Assembly (NCBI GenBank): GCA_017852795.1
Contig: JAFMKU010000008.1
Span: 1 to 55,200, forward strand
Direction: 5' to 3'
DNA length: 55,200 bases
DNA from: Candidatus Neomicrothrix sp.
GTDB taxonomy: Bacteria > Actinomycetota > Acidimicrobiia > Acidimicrobiales > Aldehydirespiratoraceae
The translations under genes were made by a program, and so were the position numbers. Under the pieces are notes generated by a model. The model was not told where the DNA came from and ran no database searches. It saw only the letters and a program-made list of their open reading frames with translations. Below, one piece after another: positions 1,222 to 41,450 of the stretch (positions are counted from its first letter, which is position 1; each line of letters starts with the position of its first letter).

Positions 1222-1295
<74 letters not shown>

Positions 1296-1300
1296 CTGGA

Positions 1301-4004: not shown

Positions 4005-6766
4005 CACGTCTCCCATCGTCGAGTTATTGTCGCCCAGAACCTCGCCCCCCACCAGAGAAACGCCATCATCAGCAGCGATCCACCCGCGAGCACCAGACCC
4101 GTTCTGAGGTGCCGAGGGTGAAACGTCAACTCCACCGTGTGGTCACCGGCCGGGATCTCAACCCCCATGAACGCGGCGTCGCTGCGCACGATCTCCGCTG
4201 GAACCCCGTCGACGGTGGCCTGCCACCCGGGATACTCCACCACCGAAAACACGACCAACGCGGGCACGGTTGACGACACCGAAGCCGACACCTGATCACC
4301 GGCAAACGACGAAGCGTTCACCACAAACTCGGCGTCGGCTACCGGTTGGGTCGGCAAGTCAGTTGCGGTCTGGGTCACCGCAACCGGCCCAGTGCGTTCC
4401 ATCACCCAAGCCGCAGCCTGATCAGCGTCGGGTTCTACCGTCGCCGCGGTAAACACACGAACCGGAGTAGCCGAGGTGCGCTCGGTCAAGATCACGTCAC
4501 CGGTTCGAAGCAGCCGCAGATCATCACCGCCAGTGACAAACCCAACGTTGAGCGAATCGTCAGCACCCCGGGCAACCAGCATGGCGCCAGGGGTCTCGGC
4601 CACCACGCTGACTGTCACTTCGGACCCGACCGGCCACTGCTCGCCCATCACCGCGACCGGCATCTCAAAAGGTCCGAGCCGGGTCCGGGTCCGCTTATCG
4701 GTCACCGTTTCACCATCAACCCGCACCTCGACCAACACCGCGGTCGGCGCCCGGAAATCAACATCGAACAGCACCGCTCTCACTCCGCCGGCGGGCACCA
4801 CCGTGGTGAACTGCTGCGGGTCAGCCGCATCAACGAACAACTGCGGATCTCCCGGGTCGATGCGCTCCCCGGGCGGCGTGCTGATCGGATACTGCGCCCA
4901 GATCCCCACCCCCATCGCATCCCAGATCGGAAGCTCGGCTGGTGTGTTGATCGGGATCGCCGGATAGGTCGGTGTGCCGCCACCACGAGGGTCAAGTACA
5001 TAGTCACCGGCTTGGCGCAGCAGCGCCTGATACCCGTCGGATTTCAGCATCTGACCACGAATGTCATCGATACCGAAACTCGCGGTGGTGTTCGGGAAGA
5101 ACACATACCCTTCGCCACCGAGCCGCAACCCATCGGGCAGCTCGGCGACAACGACCTCATGGGCGGGAGTGGCTCGCAGCCGTTCGTCCGGGTCGACCGT
5201 GGTCGGAACCGCCATCAACAACACCAGCAGTTCAGCCGCAATCACCGAAACCAGCACCAGCCCCGCTCCCATCGGAGACAACCATCGGCGCAACCGGGCC
5301 ACCACCACCGCCAGCACCACCCCCGCGGCCACCGCTGGCACCAGCAACGCTTGCCCGCTTTCTGCCAGCAAACCGCGAGCCGACGCTTCGTGATACCAGT
5401 GCCGAAGCGAAGGAAGCAGCGCCAGCACCGACACCACCGCGATCGTGGCCGCGACCCGCACCGGCCGTCGCAGCGAACCGCTGCGGGTCAGGCTGTCGCC
5501 GGTGTCGCGGTCTTGGCCGGTGAGCTGATCAACCCCGAACCCGGCCAGCAACGCCACCGCCAACGAAATCAGCACCTTGGAACGAGTCATAAGCCCGGCG
5601 GCACCCGGCAGCAGCGATCCCAACGCCACGCCGACCGGGCCACCGATGTAGGCCACCAGCAAACCGAAGCCAAGGAACGCCGCGACCCCTCGGACCGCGG
5701 CTCGAACCCGTCGGTCATCGCTCGACCATCCAGCCGCCATCCCCAACAGCGCCAACAGCAGCGCGGCGGCACCGGTAACGATGTTGAATTCGCTCCAGTT
5801 TCCCGCGCCGAACCAGGCCGGGGCGTTCCCGTCGGATCCCCAAAATCCGGAACCAAACGCGGTCAACAGGTACTCGGGACCGGCCGACGAATCCGGCGAC
5901 CAGGTCCGCTGACTGGTATCGGCCCAGGAGTAGTACTCGCCAAACCCGATCAGGTGCGGGGCTGCCAACCCAAACCCCAGCGCACCCGCGGCAATACCAA
6001 CTCCACCCAACCGGAACAGTGAGCGCTTCGATTCGGGTTCGACCCGGTCGCTTGCCGGAACTGTCCGGAACTGCCAGTCGTGACGCTCGCTGCCCAGCCG
6101 CACCAGCACATACATCAGTGCCCCAATCACGAGGTAGGCCGTGACCTGCGGGAAGTTTGACCAGATCATCAACGCCACCACACCGGCGATCGGAACACTG
6201 CGGCGCCAGCGTGGGTCGCGGATCGCCAACTCAACCGCCCACAGCAACCCGGGGGCCAGCGCCGCCACCGTCGAATGCGGCCAGTTCAACCAGCCCACCA
6301 TGAACCCTGAGAAGGCATACGCCGACCCGGCCGCTACCGCTCCCCAACGGTTGCGGTTCCACGACCGCAGCAAGCCAACCGTCAACAAGAACGCGATCAG
6401 AGCGCGAACCGCCGCCACCAGACCGGGGGCATACCAGGCGGGCACGAGCAGGTAGAGCACGTTGACGAACGGCACCCCACCTTTTAGGAACGGTTGTCCG
6501 CCGGCCAACGTCTCGTTCCACCAAGAAAATTCGCCGTTCACCAAACGGTCCCGCAGCAGCGACCAGTGAGCATGAATGTTGATCGGGTCACCGGGGCCGT
6601 TTTCTGGATCAAAACCCGGCAAAACGTGAGCGTCGAAGGGGGCGTGGGAGGCCACCAGATCGTGGCTGACCAGACTCCCACCACCGATCAGCGCGGGGCC
6701 GAACGCCACCAGGATCAACACGACCCCGAAGAGCCCGACGAGGAGTCGCCTGCTTCGCTCGGTCAT
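4004..6766 (-). CDS. YfhO-family polytopic membrane protein (GT-C-like glycosyltransferase)
   Basis: About 12-14 TM segments, WWNETLAGGQPF, AYAFSGF, and a C-terminal YPGWQATVDG...GVEIPAGDHTVELTF YfhO motif. Start ATG 6766 follows a TAGGGT hexamer. Confidence 0.8.
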   Translation of the reverse strand: MTERSRRLLVGLFGVVLILVAFGPALIGGGSLVSHDLVASHAPFDAHVLPGFDPENGPGDPINIHAHWSLLRDRLVNGEFSWWNETLAGGQPFLKGGVPFVNVLYLLVPAWYAPGLVAAVRALIAFLLTVGLLRSWNRNRWGAVAAGSAYAFSGFMVGWLNWPHSTVAALAPGLLWAVELAIRDPRWRRSVPIAGVVALMIWSNFPQVTAYLVIGALMYVLVRLGSERHDWQFRTVPASDRVEPESKRSLFRLGGVGIAAGALGFGLAAPHLIGFGEYYSWADTSQRTWSPDSSAGPEYLLTAFGSGFWGSDGNAPAWFGAGNWSEFNIVTGAAALLLALLGMAAGWSSDDRRVRAAVRGVAAFLGFGLLVAYIGGPVGVALGSLLPGAAGLMTRSKVLISLAVALLAGFGVDQLTGQDRDTGDSLTRSGSLRRPVRVAATIAVVSVLALLPSLRHWYHEASARGLLAESGQALLVPAVAAGVVLAVVVARLRRWLSPMGAGLVLVSVIAAELLVLLMAVPTTVDPDERLRATPAHEVVVAELPDGLRLGGEGYVFFPNTTASFGIDDIRGQMLKSDGYQALLRQAGDYVLDPRGGGTPTYPAIPINTPAELPIWDAMGVGIWAQYPISTPPGERIDPGDPQLFVDAADPQQFTTVVPAGGVRAVLFDVDFRAPTAVLVEVRVDGETVTDKRTRTRLGPFEMPVAVMGEQWPVGSEVTVSVVAETPGAMLVARGADDSLNVGFVTGGDDLRLLRTGDVILTERTSATPVRVFTAATVEPDADQAAAWVMERTGPVAVTQTATDLPTQPVADAEFVVNASSFAGDQVSASVSSTVPALVVFSVVEYPGWQATVDGVPAEIVRSDAAFMGVEIPAGDHTVELTFHPRHLRTGLVLAGGSLLMMAFLWWGARFWATITRRWET

Positions 6767-14589: not shown

Positions 14590-14681
14590 GGAGACGTGGC
14601 CGAGCCAGGTTGAAGGCGCTTCCCTGCTAAGGAAGTAACGTCGCAAGGCGTTCGAGGGTTCGAATCCCTCCGTCTCCGCCA
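14590..14681 (+). tRNA. tRNA-Ser(GCT)
   Basis: GGAGACG/CGTCTCC acceptor stem, anticodon arm CTTCC-CTGCTAA-GGAAG, long variable arm, TTCGAAT, encoded CCA. Confidence 0.96.
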
Positions 14682-30018: not shown

Positions 30019-31496
30019 CTAGCGGGTGATATACCGATAGGTGCGGGCCATGAACGCCGCCATCTGCTCACGGGTCACAGGATTCTTCGGTGAAAAGGTT
30101 AAATATCCCGTGCCTCTGGTGATCCTCAACTGAAAGATACATCCGATCGGATCGTCGACCCACTCGGAGGTCACATCGGTAAACGGGTGCCTTCCCGAAC
30201 ACGACCTACGCTCGATCGTCTCGATAAACCGGGCGAGGAACGCTGCCATCTGCTCGCGAGTGACCATGTCCGACGGCGAATACTTTCCGGGACCTGGTTG
30301 CTGCCATCAACCCGAACCTTGTACAACACGATCGGGCTACCACCATCACTCAACGGTGCGTTCCACCGGGCTTGAGGTGCGCCCGAATCAGTGAACTCCA
30401 TCACCACGTCAACCGGCACCGACGGGCTCGGTAGCCGCCCGACCGGTTCGGTCGGGCCTGAACCTGCTCCGGAATTGAAGGCTTCCACGCTCACCTGGTA
30501 CTCGGCGTCCGGGTTCAGACTGTTCACGATCGTGCACTTCGTCTCATCGCCGGTTGTCGTGCAGGAGTCGCCGCTGGGTTCCATAGTCGCGACATAGGAG
30601 ATGATCTCGCGACCCCCGTCTTCGGTGGGCGGCGTCCACTCCACGTCCAACATGCCAAGCCTTGTCTGGTACACCCGCACATCGGTTGGCCGATCTGGAC
30701 GATCCCAAATCTCGGCGCTCATCGAGGAGGTGGCCGGGCCTGAGCGCCCCACCACATTGTGGGCATACACCGTGGCCCGATACGAAGAACGCAACTCGAG
30801 CCCCCAAGCCCCTGAAATCACACAGGAGTACTCGTTCGTATCCGGTCGGGCCTGAGCAATGCAGGAACCGGGTTGAGGGTCGGCGAACGCCTGATAGGCG
30901 ACGATTGGGCTGCCCCCCGAATCGGCTGGCGCCGTCCAGATCACACGAAGATGACTCGGCGACGACGTTTCCACCTTCACGTTCTGAGGAGCTCCCGGGA
31001 TCACCACAAAGGTGAGGGGCGTTGATTCGGCAGACCACGCGGACCAGTAGCCAGCCTCGTTGACCGCCCGCACCGACGCCCGGTATTCGACCCCCGGTTC
31101 AAACAGGTCGGTGTCAATAACCGAACAGTTCGGTATCGCCATGCCGGACTCGTCAAAGCCAAGCGTGCAGGTCGCTCCTCCCGGTTCGAGGGTGGCGGTG
31201 TAGCCCACGATCGGGCTCTGCCCGCTGATGTCGGGGGTGCGCCACCAGATACGAAAGCCTTGGGCACCAACCCGACGCAACTGCACGTCATGGGGCGGGT
31301 TTGATGCCAGCGCGGTCACCTCACTGTCTTGCGCCGCTGACTCGGGATCGGCTGTCAACGGACCGGCCGATGCCGGCGTCACGACCAAAGTCAAGCTTGC
31401 CGATGCGACAAGTAGCGCCAGAACAGAACTCAGCACCCTCCTATAGGTAAGGACACTTTCCAGCCGACGTACATCATCCCATTCTCGCATGGGCAC
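30019..31496 (-). pseudogene. Secreted fibronectin type III repeat plus SLH-domain protein, broken by an out-of-frame junction
   Basis: Signal peptide and three FN3 repeats (WxxPxxxGGSPIxxY). A fourth repeat is cut near 30300. SLH motifs (YSPSDMVTREQMAAF, FSPKNPVTREQMAAF) continue in another frame that has a TGA just upstream of the junction. Confidence 0.75.
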
Positions 31497-31577
31497 CAGA
31501 CTGACACTCTTGGAGCGCTTTGTGACTTCGCCCTTTCCGGACCCGCTTGATCTGGGTTACCGAAAGACCGAACGGCG

Positions 31578-32075
31578 TTACTTTCGCAGGCCAGTGAAAC
31601 CGTTGGCGTGCAACTCGAGCCCGGCAACACCGGCCTGCGGGTACATCTCCTCAAAGGTCCGGCTGTACCCGGTGTGCGAAATCCGCCAGCCGGCCTCGGT
31701 CTTGACGTAGCGATCCTCGTAAAACGCCGCGCCTCGCAGGTTCACACTGAAATCACCAACGATCACCTGATCCTCAAGTTTCCAGGTGCCCGTGGCGGTG
31801 CCGTCATCAAAGACATCGATCTCTGGCTGGTGGCAGGCGTGGCTGGACAAAAACTCGACCGACCCCATGCTTTCGTGGAGGAAGGCAATGATCCCCGCCC
31901 GGTCATCAAATGCGTATTTACCGTCGCTGTAGGACGCGGTGCAGTCTTCGGTCAGCACGTCAACCAGCTCATCAAACCGATGCTGGTCAACAAGGCGCAG
32001 GTAGGCGTACTTGCAGCGCTTGATCAACTCAAGCTCAACCAACAGATCCGGGGTCACGGGAAGCAAAGAAGTCAT
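31578..32075 (-). CDS. SnoaL/NTF2-like protein (BaiE/LinA-type dehydratase fold)
   Basis: IKRCKYAYLRLVD, SSHACHQPEI, ATGTW, YEDRY, WRIS. Confidence 0.85.
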   Translation of the reverse strand: MTSLLPVTPDLLVELELIKRCKYAYLRLVDQHRFDELVDVLTEDCTASYSDGKYAFDDRAGIIAFLHESMGSVEFLSSHACHQPEIDVFDDGTATGTWKLEDQVIVGDFSVNLRGAAFYEDRYVKTEAGWRISHTGYSRTFEEMYPQAGVAGLELHANGFTGLRK

Positions 32076-32273
32076 GCCCCTATCGTTGCCTACCTGACCA
32101 GCGGAAGCGATTCGAAACGTCGAACAAACCCGCCGGAGGCAAACCGCGACAGCACGCAGAACCGACCCGACGACGACTCGACGGGCAGCTACGGAGCCTC
32201 ATCGCGCCGGTGCCGACACTCCTCCCAAGGCGAACGCCATGACTCACCACCGCACCAGGCGAAGGTGATTGGG

Positions 32274-32750
32274 TCAGCCCAGAAGCTCAGGGAGTTGCTG
32301 TGCCACCTCTTCTGGCGAAACCATCGGGCTGAACCGAGCCAGAACCTGACCATCGGCTCCGACCAGGAACTTCTCGAAGTTCCAAGTGATGTCGGAGGAC
32401 TCGCCGTCCCCTGGCTGTTCTGACTTCAGCCAGCGATACAACTCGCAGGCATCGTCGCCGTTGACATCAATCTTGGCAAACACCGGAAAATCGATGTCGT
32501 ATTTGTCGGTGATAAACGCCCGGATTTCTTCAGGCGAACCCGGTTCCTGACCACCGAACTGGTTGCACGGGAAACCCAGAACCTGAACCCCGTTGTCATC
32601 ATGATGAAGCGCACGCAGACCTGCGTACTGAGGCGTAAGGCCTCAAGCAGATGCGACGTTGACCACTAGGCAGGCCGAACCGGAGTACTGCGAGAACGAA
32701 ACCTCGTCTCCGGCCAGCGATGCCATTGCAAATTCGTGAAAGCTGGACAT
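32274..32750 (-). CDS. Glutathione peroxidase-family protein, probable selenoprotein (Sec36 from TGA at 32643-32645), 158 aa
   Basis: Manual translation from ATG 32750 gives MSSFHEFAMASLAGDEVSFSQYSGSACLVVNVASA-(TGA)-GLTPQYAGL...LGFPCNQFGGQEPG...FPVFAKIDVNG...WNFEKFLV. The TGA sits exactly at the peroxidatic position of NVASxCGLTPQY, with a SECIS-like hairpin downstream. Confidence 0.93.
32611..32628 (-). promoter_or_regulatory. Bacterial SECIS-like element
   Basis: mRNA UGA-GGCCUUACGCCUCA-GUACGCA-GGUC-UGCGUGC forms a 7-bp stem with a GGUC loop. The apex GCAGGUCUGC is the same as in the E. coli fdhF SECIS. Confidence 0.8.
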
Positions 32751-32804
32751 GACCGAAACGCTATCGCAGCCACGGCAGCGAACCAGCCTGTGATCGTCGC
32801 TGCG

Positions 32805-33839
32805 CTACGCCTTGGATCGTCGGGCCGCCCAGTGGGTGGTCGCTCCCGCAGCCTGGAACCGTTCCGGACGGTCTTCGGGACCCAACAAATCGGTCGCCAA
32901 CCACAGGCGTTTTAACCACCGCACCCGACCAGTGGTCGGATCGTCGACGTACGACCGACGGCCGTGCAGCACGTGATAGTTGTTGATGAACTGCATGTCC
33001 CCGGCGGCAAAAGTCATCTCTACCTGATTGTCGGTCGCGGTGAGTAACGCGTCGAAAGCGTCCATGGCGGCCCGCTGATCGTCGGACAACCGTGGTGCGT
33101 CCGGGTGCCGTTGCGAAGCTTCGATATAGGGCCGTATGTAGCGGACAAACAGACGGTCGCGATGCCGAGAAAACGCGGGCACCCGATAGTAAGGGTCTCC
33201 GCCGTCGCGTTGTTCACCCCGAAAGTCATAGGGCAATCCGCCGTAAAGCACCCCGGCGAGTTCAGGATCCGCAACCACCAGTTGGTTGTGAGCACGAACT
33301 GCGTTGGCTATCAAACTCTCACCGCCCCGAACCCCGGGATCGAGACACAACAAACCGACCAGATCCGAACCGTCGGAATGAAACACCTGTCCTACCCCGC
33401 CAAGCTCGTTGCCTCGCGCGGTGGGATCATCAGGGCGTTTCCCTTGGTCTTTCACATCGCCCAACAGGTGGCCTTTGGCATTCTGCGGCCAGGGAACGCC
33501 GAGGTGAAGCCCGATCCCCCAATAGATCCACGACGAGTCCTCAGTCCCAACCTGTTCCACCGGCAACCCGGAAATTCTCTGGAAGCCGCGGCCGTTGATC
33601 AGTTCGTCGGCGATCTCGGACAGACGAACCGACAGCGTGGGAAGTGGGAACGTTTCACGGCTCACATCCAATACGTCATCGGCTGCGCTGCGAGCAACCG
33701 CGAGGGCCTCGGTCAACTCAACAAGGTCGGTGTCGCTCAACTGGTAGGTCCACCGATTCGAGTCAGCGACGTCAGCGGCGGACCATTCGGCCTGCCGGTC
33801 CAGCACCGTGACCGCACCGGCGGCCAAAGGTTCCGCCAT
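32805..33839 (-). CDS. TauD/TfdA-family 2OG/Fe(II) dioxygenase
   Basis: GRGF, QNAKG, FHSD (HxD), NNYHVLHGR, RLWL. Confidence 0.9.
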   Translation of the reverse strand: MAEPLAAGAVTVLDRQAEWSAADVADSNRWTYQLSDTDLVELTEALAVARSAADDVLDVSRETFPLPTLSVRLSEIADELINGRGFQRISGLPVEQVGTEDSSWIYWGIGLHLGVPWPQNAKGHLLGDVKDQGKRPDDPTARGNELGGVGQVFHSDGSDLVGLLCLDPGVRGGESLIANAVRAHNQLVVADPELAGVLYGGLPYDFRGEQRDGGDPYYRVPAFSRHRDRLFVRYIRPYIEASQRHPDAPRLSDDQRAAMDAFDALLTATDNQVEMTFAAGDMQFINNYHVLHGRRSYVDDPTTGRVRWLKRLWLATDLLGPEDRPERFQAAGATTHWAARRSKA

Positions 33840-33840
33840 C

Positions 33841-35574
33841 TCAGCTCACCGGCGCCGCTTGCGGTCCCCGTACCAACCGGCCCGGCAACGCACCGGTCGC
33901 TTCGCCTGAGGCATAGGTTTCAACCCCGGCCACCAGCGTGTGCAGGTATCCATCGGCTCGCTGCACCACCCGTCGGCCACCACCCGGCAGGTCGTAGCGC
34001 AACTCGGGAGCATGCACCTGCAAACGGTCGAAATCGATCACGTTGAGGTCCGCTCGGAAGCCGGGCGCCAACACCCCTCGGTCGCCCAATCCGACCAGAC
34101 GCGCCGTGTCTCGACATTGACGTTGCACCAGAAACTCGAGATCGATTCGTTCTCGTTGGCGATCACGGCCCCAGTGCTGCAACAGCGTCGTCGGAAACGA
34201 ACCGTCACAGATCGTGCCCACGTGGGCGCCACCGTCGGACAACGACGGCACGGTGAACGGATGGGTCAACAGCTCTCGGGTCCCGTCCAAGTTTCCTTGT
34301 CCATAATTAGAAAACGGAACCCACAACATGGCGGTGCCGTCCTGTTCCAACAGCGCATCCAACGCCACCGCTTCGGCGGTGCGACCGGTGCGGGTCGCGA
34401 TCGCTGCGATCGAAGTGTTCGGGTCGGGTTCGTAGTTCGGGAAGCGACCAAGCGCGAACATCGAATCAAACTTCTCGATCAGCCGACCTCCCACCAACGT
34501 GGCGTCTCGGCCACCAGCCGCAGCCAGAAGCCGTTCCTGGAAGGCCGGGTCTTGGAGGGCCTGAGTGCGTTCAGTCAACGGAAGGTCGGCGACTTCGCGA
34601 TACACCTCGTTGCGAAGAAACGGGTTCAAAGTGCATTCGAACCCGAGCAGCAAACCAATGGGGCGCACCGCGGTCTGGCCGGTAACCATCAGACCATCGG
34701 CTCGAGCTTGCTCTACGTGGGCCAGCAACGCACGGTGATAGTCGAAACTGCGTGAGCTTTCGACCAGCGTGAAACTGATCGGTCGTCCCGACCGTTCGCT
34801 CATGGCCCGCACAATCGCGAACTCGCCGTCAATGTCAGAAAAGTCGCTGACCAATTGCAAGACCCCTCGGCCGGTACGTCCGACCGCTTCGGCGATGCCC
34901 ACCAGTTCCTCTTCGGCCGCAGTCAACGTCGGCGTGAACTCCCCGGTAGACGTGCGATGGTTTTGGGTACGACTGGTGGTGAACCCCAAGAAGCCAGCTT
35001 CGATCGCCTCCGCGGCCAACGACCCCATCTCGGTGATGTCGGCTGCGGTGGCGTCTTCTCGCCGAGCCCCTCGCTCCCCCATCACAAACAACCGCAACGC
35101 CCCATGCGGGACCTGCGCGGCGATGTCCATATCTTTGGCGCCGTCCAGCGCATCGAGGTACTCCGGTAGCGAGTTCCACGTCCACGGCAAACCTTCATGC
35201 AACGCAGTACCGGGGATGTCTTCCACGCCCTCCATCAACTCCACCAACCGTTGATGATCCGATGCATGAACCGGAGCGAACCCGACCCCACAGTTTCCAA
35301 ACACGACGGTCGTCACCCCGTGCCACGACGATGGTTGCATCGTGGACTCCCAGGTGGCTTGGCCGTCGTAATGGGTATGCACATCGACAAACCCGGGGGT
35401 TACCAGTGCGCCATCGGCATTGATCTCTCTCGTCGCAGAACCCAACGAGCCAGCGTCATCTACCGCCACGATCCGCCCATCGGTGACCGCCACGTCCGCG
35501 GTGCGAGCCGGTGCCCCGGTCCCATCGATCACGGTGCCGCCCCGAATCACCACATCAAACTCAGCCATGGCCAC
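33841..35574 (-). CDS. N-acyl-D-amino-acid deacylase-family amidohydrolase
   Basis: PGFVDVHTHYD, HGVTTVVFGNCGVGFAP, SDGGAH, GFRADLNVID. Confidence 0.9.
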   Translation of the reverse strand: MAMAEFDVVIRGGTVIDGTGAPARTADVAVTDGRIVAVDDAGSLGSATREINADGALVTPGFVDVHTHYDGQATWESTMQPSSWHGVTTVVFGNCGVGFAPVHASDHQRLVELMEGVEDIPGTALHEGLPWTWNSLPEYLDALDGAKDMDIAAQVPHGALRLFVMGERGARREDATAADITEMGSLAAEAIEAGFLGFTTSRTQNHRTSTGEFTPTLTAAEEELVGIAEAVGRTGRGVLQLVSDFSDIDGEFAIVRAMSERSGRPISFTLVESSRSFDYHRALLAHVEQARADGLMVTGQTAVRPIGLLLGFECTLNPFLRNEVYREVADLPLTERTQALQDPAFQERLLAAAGGRDATLVGGRLIEKFDSMFALGRFPNYEPDPNTSIAAIATRTGRTAEAVALDALLEQDGTAMLWVPFSNYGQGNLDGTRELLTHPFTVPSLSDGGAHVGTICDGSFPTTLLQHWGRDRQRERIDLEFLVQRQCRDTARLVGLGDRGVLAPGFRADLNVIDFDRLQVHAPELRYDLPGGGRRVVQRADGYLHTLVAGVETYASGEATGALPGRLVRGPQAAPVS

Positions 35575-41368: not shown

Positions 41369-41376
41369 TCCTAGCG

Positions 41377-41450
<74 letters not shown>

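Follow-up and report, generated by a model that had tools for sequence, protein, structure and literature searches.

Glutathione peroxidases (GPx) that contain selenocysteine (Sec) have already been catalogued among bacteria. The available text of the Sargasso Sea study counts GPx among the bacterial selenoproteins, with the motif UxxT, and describes the apical loop of the bacterial Sec insertion sequence (SECIS) as small and containing a G (PMC1088965), and the accessible sections of a 2006 survey report one GPx selenoprotein, in Treponema denticola, and name Actinobacteria as a selenoprotein-rich phylum (PMC1794560). A 2026 review, in its available portion, separates the ‘GPX-like protein, PF00255, UxxT’ from the experimentally identified families and grades it as ‘predicted with high confidence’ (PMC13188914). 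The accessible part of a 2026 preprint attributes Sec machinery and ~5 selenoproteins per genome to the Actinomarinales, a sister order, and ‘glutathione peroxidase’ is absent from that part of its text. Sec-GPx in Acidimicrobiales finds no mention in the accessible text of the literature searched, and the supplementary tables of the surveys may list such genes. Here we describe a GPx gene encoded on a stretch of 55,200 nucleotides (hereafter, the window; contig JAFMKU010000008.1 of assembly GCA_017852795.1, Candidatus Neomicrothrix sp.) that is interrupted by an in-frame TGA at the peroxidatic position and that, with a probability that we place at roughly 93%, would be a genuine Sec-decoded GPx. 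The gene is a further member of the already catalogued bacterial Sec-GPx (UxxT) family, with which it shares the PF00255 domain, a predicted Sec at the peroxidatic position within U-G-L-T (UxxT), a putative SECIS in the coding region right after the UGA with a small loop containing G, and the existence of widespread homologues with cysteine (Cys). It differs from the catalogued proteins in that its clade belongs to uncultured Acidimicrobiales (Actinomycetota), where the TGA form is fixed across a family-level clade.

The GPx gene lies on the minus strand at positions 32274-32750 and comprises 158 codons, with an ATG start at 32750 and a terminal TGA at 32274-32276. The first-pass annotation, made from the window alone, had pointed out that the plain list of open reading frames (ORFs) retains just a 69-aa tail, that the frame can be extended to the ATG at 32750 with a single TGA at codon 36, and that the GPx motifs are intact on both sides of it. 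All three observations hold on the minus strand: the tail corresponds to 32274-32483 and begins with GTG, the TGA (32643-32645, within VNVASA-(TGA)-GLTPQY) is the sole interruption of the 158-codon frame, and the motifs FPCNQFGGQEPG and WNFEKFLV are both present. The Pfam profile GSHPx (PF00255) matches residues 4-109, across the TGA, at 125.7 bits (gathering cut-off 27) and over its whole length (positions 1-108 of 108). This TGA, which we predict to be a Sec codon, occupies precisely the place at which 74 homologues have their Cys codon in the motif NVAS-x-[C/U]-G, and the redox motif U36-G-L-T39 that it would form fits UxxT, its Thr being kept in 21 of 22 orthologues and replaced by Ala in one.

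Among sequences of the PDB, 41 GPx match the window protein at E <= 1e-10, the top relatives being of the GPx4/Hyr1 type (6vpd, 150.4 bits; 3cmi, Hyr1, 142.5 bits; 2obi, GPX4, 130.7 bits). Like eukaryotic Sec-GPx4 and yeast Hyr1 (Gpx3), it has a length of ~160 aa, no oligomerisation insert, and conserved Gln, Trp, and Asn; these residues (Q68, W123, and N124), invariant in a 16-sequence alignment, are those that we take to be the remaining members of the GPx catalytic tetrad. In contrast with the window gene, eukaryotic GPx4 has its SECIS in the 3' untranslated region and depends on SBP2/eEFSec, whereas Hyr1 has a Cys together with a resolving Cys. No conserved resolving Cys was seen in the orthologue alignments of the window GPx, where C102 is Ala in most orthologues. 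Fold and motifs are also shared with the Cys-type (BtuE-like) GPx of other Actinomycetota, from which the window protein differs by its separate clade on the tree (see below) and by its score against NCBIfam NF007900 (BtuE-type GPx), 158.7 bits under an equivalog cut-off of 270. The match to TIGR02540 (gpx7) likewise stays under its equivalog cut-off (119.6 against 207.3 bits), so that the window GPx is related to both families but outside both equivalogs.

The TGA is conserved well beyond this genome. Searching 41 genomes in six frames (this one and 40 relatives) yielded 32 matches in 31 genomes. Of these matches, 22, in 22 genomes and at 57-99% identity, have a single TGA each; no TGA is present in the remaining ten (47-52% identity), one of which has a TAG. 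In the site-level comparison, which covered 30 matches (22 with TGA and 8 without, two TGA-less matches being left out), all 22 TGAs fall into one alignment column, where the eight TGA-less loci all have TGC or TGT. Every one of the 22 orthologues consists of a 35-codon N-terminal part with an ATG or GTG start, the TGA, and a C-terminal part of 119-125 codons ended by TGA (14), TAG (7), or TAA (1). Extending the comparison with 80 public named loci to 110 rows, some of which duplicate searched genomes (L027 = L057, L028 = L059), gave 36 TGA and 74 TGC/TGT at this site, which is the alternation of TGA and Cys that the first-pass annotation had proposed to look for. A further check that it had proposed, the selection on the two sides of the TGA, was also favourable: the median dN/dS (Nei-Gojobori) among the orthologues is 0.203 on the N-terminal side (interquartile range 0.142-0.318; 197 of 231 pairs usable) and 0.160 on the C-terminal side (0.130-0.215; 224 of 231 pairs), with a median dS of ~1 on both. 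The window copy compared with the other orthologues gives medians of 0.222 and 0.131, respectively. The GPx is under purifying selection on both sides of the TGA.

A conserved SECIS-like element, absent from the first-pass annotation, follows this TGA. The minimum free energy (MFE) fold of the 61 nt from the UGA contains an 18-nt apical hairpin (32611-32628, minus strand) made up of a 7-bp stem, GUACGCA/UGCGUGC, and the loop GGUC (32618-32621, or +25 to +28 counting the U of UGA as 1), which fits the published criterion of a stem-loop that immediately follows the UGA and carries a G in its small apical loop. Codons +5 to +10 are nearly invariable at the nucleotide level in the 22 Sec forms (CAG, GCA, GGT, and CTG in 22/22; TAC and CGT in 21/22), with a third-position entropy of 0-0.27 where flanking codons reach 1-1.8. 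Three of these frozen codons, GCA, GGT, and CGT, have A or T at the third position despite the 62% G+C of the genome. The same codons vary freely in the eight Cys forms, and codons +11 to +13 are likewise frozen in the Sec forms. Over 19 distinct sequences, 99.2% of the cells of the apical stem are paired, the two variable pairs switching between U-G and U-A and between C-G and U-G. We propose a full SECIS (32605-32645, minus strand) in which a lower stem, UGAGGC/GCUUCA, with the UGA inside it, would enclose the apical hairpin together with an internal stretch of 11 nt. This enclosing lower stem is 96.5% paired and shows one double compensatory change (C-G to A-U), as compared with 89.5% for a small 5' hairpin of the MFE fold (UGAGGC/GCCUCA) that we discarded. 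The two-tier model with the UGA in the lower stem is the one that we favour, with a thin covariation support that 29 of 500 shuffles reach.

A close parallel to this element is the SECIS of Escherichia coli fdhF (formate dehydrogenase H), the reference for Sec insertion in bacteria, which we took from the K-12 genome (NC_000913; locus L137). The 10-nt apical core GCAGGUCUGC (GCA-GGUC-UGC) is identical in both, the UGA can pair in a lower stem in both, and the loop stands ~22-28 nt from the UGA. The differences concern the host protein, which is unrelated, the exact place of the loop (+22 to +25 in fdhF, +25 to +28 in the GPx), and the apical stem, a perfect 7-bp helix in the GPx, unlike the fdhF element, which has a bulged U. 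In fdhF, SelB contacts the loop G and U.

The machinery needed to decode such an element is encoded in the same genome. The window corresponds to contig C47 in a draft genome of 2.32 Mb (118 contigs, 92% complete, 62% G+C) that, as the first-pass annotation had predicted for a Sec-using organism, contains selA, selB, selC, and selD, all four above curated cut-offs in profile searches. The tRNA-Sec(UCA) scores 68.2 bits (Rfam cut-off 47) and is called tRNA-SeC with anticodon tca by ARAGORN. SelA (332.9 bits) and SelB (276.8 bits), encoded directly downstream of it, have no internal stops, and SelB displays the GTP_EFTU and EFTU_D2 domains as well as a C-terminal winged-helix domain (SelB-wing_3), also a component of the E. 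coli fdhF system. SelD (370.1 bits) itself contains one in-frame TGA, in SHGAG-(TGA)-GCK. TGA is at the same time the commonest ordinary stop of the genome, ending 896 of the 1557 ORFs that have 300 codons or more.

The machinery and the TGA form also occur together across the 41 genomes. SelA is above its cut-off in 34 of them and tRNA-Sec in 33, both being present in all 22 genomes with a TGA-GPx, whereas none of the seven genomes without SelA above cut-off has one. Among these seven, G027, G030, and G031 have a Cys codon at the site, G037 has a match devoid of TGA that lay outside the site-level comparison, and G026, G032, and G038 have no GPx match. G026, a member of the same order (84% complete, 510 contigs), shows TGA-bearing matches to the peroxiredoxin (Prx)-like and GrdB-like families described below although neither SelA nor tRNA-Sec was found in it. 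Its Sec machinery is probably just unassembled, which makes absence calls in these metagenome-assembled genomes (MAGs) weak.

At least part of the stretch is contained in 20 of 24 listed public runs. We aligned four of them to positions 32150-32900 of the window, two of DNA (X4 and X12, not flagged as possible source) and two of RNA libraries (X15 and X17). No letter differs at 32643-32645 in any of their contigs (X4 record 17, X12 record 7, X15 record 9, and X17 record 14); the first-pass annotation had proposed to confirm the TGA in raw reads. The metatranscriptome contig X15 record 9 spans 32150-32736, and the RNA-library contigs may be taken as a weak hint of transcription of the GPx.

Together, the machinery, the conserved TGA, the dN/dS values, the conserved hairpin, and the contigs of public runs support the proposal of the first-pass annotation that this UGA is recoded as Sec. 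The gene would then yield a 158-residue thiol peroxidase of the monomeric (GPx4/Hyr1-like) type with Sec as peroxidatic residue. During translation, the UGA at codon 36 would not be read as a stop: the mRNA hairpin just after it, with its 7-bp apical stem and GGUC loop at +25 to +28, probably above a lower stem holding the UGA, would be bound by the C-terminal winged-helix domain of SelB, which would deliver Sec-tRNA(Sec)(UCA) to the ribosome. The tRNA-Sec would be charged via SelA with selenophosphate supplied by SelD, and the second UGA, at 32274-32276, without such a hairpin, would act as the true stop. In the protein, the selenolate at residue 36 would reduce hydroperoxides together with Gln68, Trp123, and Asn124, with a low-molecular-weight thiol or a thioredoxin as possible reductant. 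We infer the binding of SelB to the hairpin, the delivery of Sec-tRNA(Sec), and the termination at the second UGA from what is established on Sec decoding in bacteria, and the insertion of selenium and the enzymatic activity are predictions.

Several observations weigh against Sec decoding of the window gene or limit what can be read into its support. The presence of selenium in the GPx protein is a prediction from sequence. Because the genomes compared are related, the 22/22 counts cannot be taken as 22 separate events, and a single origin is enough for the tree. The 61 nt have an unexceptional folding energy (z = -1.44; 19 of 200 shuffles fold as well), and no pair of the apical stem has undergone a double compensatory change in the 19 distinct sequences. 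A scan of positions 31500-33500 with Rfam (E <= 10) retrieved no SECIS family, just an unrelated snoRNA-like match of 15.7 bits, an outcome that we regard as uninformative, and the GPx loop is located 3 nt further from the UGA than that of E. coli fdhF. As for transcription, RNA libraries may contain DNA, and the contigs show neither strand nor expression level. Concerning the folding energy, the validated fdhF SECIS itself folds no better than shuffled sequences (z = +0.10), which means that this z-score does not discriminate bacterial SECIS, and we dropped it as a criterion. Given the lack of double changes in the apical stem, the structural support rests on the suppression of synonymous change, for which some other constraint on the nucleotide sequence could in principle be responsible.

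The explanations that compete with Sec decoding fare worse on the same evidence. It is very unlikely that the UGA is read by near-cognate insertion of Trp, Cys, or Arg, or mostly terminates translation, the product not being a selenoprotein. The inserted residue is indeed not identifiable from sequence, and a public homologue (P0002, 158 aa, 75% identity) is recorded with Arg at this place (VNVASA-R-GLTPQY). However, the Sec pathway is complete in every genome with a TGA form, the apical core of the hairpin is the same as in the SelB-binding fdhF element, the SelD and FdhA-like genes of this genome show the same arrangement, and the TGA aligns with the catalytic Cys, a GPx position at which, to our knowledge, only Sec or Cys supports catalysis. 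The Arg of P0002 may reflect a genuine CGA codon or an artefact, and the C that P0003 has at the Sec site may be a real Cys or a U converted for display. We consider it very improbable, too, that the real product is a ~121-aa C-terminal protein starting just after the TGA, with the upstream 35 codons non-coding, even if there are many public ‘glutathione peroxidase’ entries of 101-121 aa (70-86% identity) and the aligned 121-aa entries start with MTPQY, two residues past the TGA. Such a protein would be devoid of the peroxidatic residue and would have no conserved start (codon +2 is CTT, CTC, ATC, CTG, ATG, or TTC among the orthologues), whereas purifying selection acts on the 35 codons before the TGA (median dN/dS 0.20), which align with the N-termini of full-length Cys homologues, the Pfam match starting at residue 4.

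A nonsense pseudogene, that is, a GPx inactivated by a change of its Cys codon (TGC or TGT) into TGA and now decaying, would explain both the frame broken by one TGA and the fact that standard gene calling gives only fragments, but it is extremely unlikely. The TGA is kept in all 22 orthologues down to 57% identity without any other lesion, all of them maintain the 35-codon N-part and the 119-125-codon C-part with proper starts and stops, and the Sec forms make up one well-supported clade diversified across several families; in particular, a decaying pseudogene cannot give a dN/dS of ~0.2 on both sides at a dS of ~1. An alternative genetic code with TGA as a sense codon (Trp or Gly) has in its favour only the in-frame TGA itself, and the use of TGA as a stop practically excludes it: TGA ends most of the long ORFs counted above (896/1557), the GPx itself and 14 of the 22 orthologues end in TGA, SelA and SelB have no internal stops, and the residue aligned in homologues is Cys, not Trp or Gly. 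Finally, although the source is a draft of 118 contigs, an error of sequencing or assembly in this MAG can be ruled out, with hardly any residual doubt, since the TGA is unchanged in the contigs of four other runs; the same TGA also occurs in 21 other genomes and in 14 further public records, some of them duplicates.

The first-pass annotation had also foreseen further mis-annotated selenoproteins, and a genome-wide scan combined with searches for single families gave six more TGA-containing candidates in the same genome. SelD (G000:C38:35289-36326, plus strand; locus L054) has its TGA in SHGAG-(TGA)-GCK, followed by a hairpin UGGCGCA-GGUCG-UGCGCCG with the loop at +36 to +40. A molybdopterin oxidoreductase similar to FdhA/FdhF (G000:C97, plus strand, TGA at 6261-6263; locus L138, 1062-1064; Pfam Molybdopterin, 217.5 bits) carries its TGA in CNRT-(TGA)-HAPSVVGL, the same position as the Sec of E. 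coli fdhF (CARV-U-HGPS), with a loop GGUCU at +22 to +26. The other four are a member of the ArsC family (G000:C94:15998-16378, minus strand; locus L053; 50.2 bits) with YHNPN-U-NSS (UxxS), a CMD/AhpD-like protein (G000:C4:18979-19557, plus strand; locus L050; 42.5 bits) with C-H-Y-U (CxxU), a Prx-like AhpC-TSA/Redoxin protein with a TPR repeat (G000:C24:66553-67557, minus strand; locus L051; 44 bits) with W-U-G-C, and a GRDB-like protein (G000:C86:4619-5791, plus strand; locus L052; 28.1 bits) with U-P-L-C (UxxC). The TGA of the SelD, FdhA-like, ArsC-like, and AhpD-like genes is followed, at +22 to +40, by a loop with GGUC in it, and that of the Prx-like gene by the loop CGGGU. Counting stops only, and not comparing columns, in 25 genomes, we observed at least one TGA in 16 of 17 ArsC-like, 14 of 17 AhpD-like, 19 of 23 Prx-like, and 27 of 28 GrdB-like matches. 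The seven candidates, GPx included, are a minimum, as our home-made genome-wide scan was not exhaustive: a filter on G+C at third codon positions left 1128 candidates and a codon-usage filter 282, the latter losing the GPx itself. Two loci picked from the scan list, L055 and L056, turned out to be two adjacent genes in the same frame each. In 21 of the 22 GPx orthologues, a U directly precedes the Sec UGA (window position 32646) although the encoded amino acid varies (A, T, N, S, or R), and a U is also found there in six of the seven candidate selenoprotein genes of this genome, which points to a possible context preference at the nucleotide level.

Phylogenetic analysis places the Sec forms together. 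In a quick maximum-likelihood tree calculated with the site masked, the 36 Sec rows are all on one side of a single branch (length 0.43; support of 100 in the Shimodaira-Hasegawa-like approximate likelihood ratio test, SH-aLRT), so that a single change of state suffices, and this well-supported Sec clade is diversified across several families. The Cys GPx of eight further genomes of this order group apart, in a clade with sequences of Streptosporangiaceae and Actinosynnema. One genome, G039, has both kinds, a Sec-type GPx with 62% identity and a TGA-less one with 50% (C213:19429-19899 and C38:106-573). The separate Cys clade within the same order and the coexistence of both kinds in G039 argue that the Sec-GPx is a distinct, long-kept lineage rather than an allele that arose recently from the local Cys gene. 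Sec-GPx was detected in 20 of 25 searched genomes of the family f1, this one included. The closest named public records are uncultured MAGs of Acidimicrobiales type, and, by their titles, the 14 records with TGA within the set of 80 named loci belong to Acidimicrobiales (8), Ilumatobacteraceae (3), Acidimicrobiaceae (1), Candidatus Aldehydirespiratoraceae (1), and Actinomycetota bacterium (1).

The genes surrounding the GPx are context only. Upstream, a dioxygenase of the TauD/TfdA family (32805-33839, minus strand; PF02668, 114.3 bits) ends 55 nt before the GPx start, and a protein with a SnoaL-like domain is encoded downstream (31578-32075, minus strand; PF13577, 89.9 bits). Other neighbouring genes, also on the minus strand, encode a protein that has three fibronectin type III domains (30171-31496) and one of the Amidohydro_3 family (33841-35574). 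An antisense ORF that overlaps the 3' end of the GPx (31608-32423, plus strand, 271 aa) has no Pfam match and was taken as spurious. The window also contains three ordinary tRNAs, tRNA-Arg(acg) (1222-1296, plus strand), tRNA-Ser(gct) (14590-14681, plus strand), which is the source of a weak sub-threshold match to the tRNA-Sec model, and tRNA-Ile(gat) (41376-41450, minus strand).

Gene callers routinely cut short selenoprotein genes of this kind, and the Sec-GPx appear to be systematically mis-annotated. Public protein records (P0010, P0015, P0019, P0035, and others) hold the clade mostly as fragments of 101-121 aa without the catalytic residue, including two 121-aa NCBI entries named ‘MAG: glutathione peroxidase [Actinomycetota bacterium]’, which implies that the redox and selenium metabolism of these Acidimicrobiales is under-called. 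The chances seem to us about even that a whole family-level clade of uncultured aquatic Acidimicrobiales possesses a vertically inherited Sec-GPx that arose once and belongs to an aerobic selenoproteome of seven or more genes, all decoded via fdhF-type GGUC SECIS. The value of this finding lies mainly in annotation and ecology, and what is known about Sec decoding itself would remain unchanged. As it shares an identical SECIS apex with fdhF, this GPx could be the first bacterial Sec-GPx to be expressed and assayed directly in E. coli. If the reading of a clade-wide selenoproteome is correct, selenium would be an overlooked micronutrient requirement of these Acidimicrobiales lineages.

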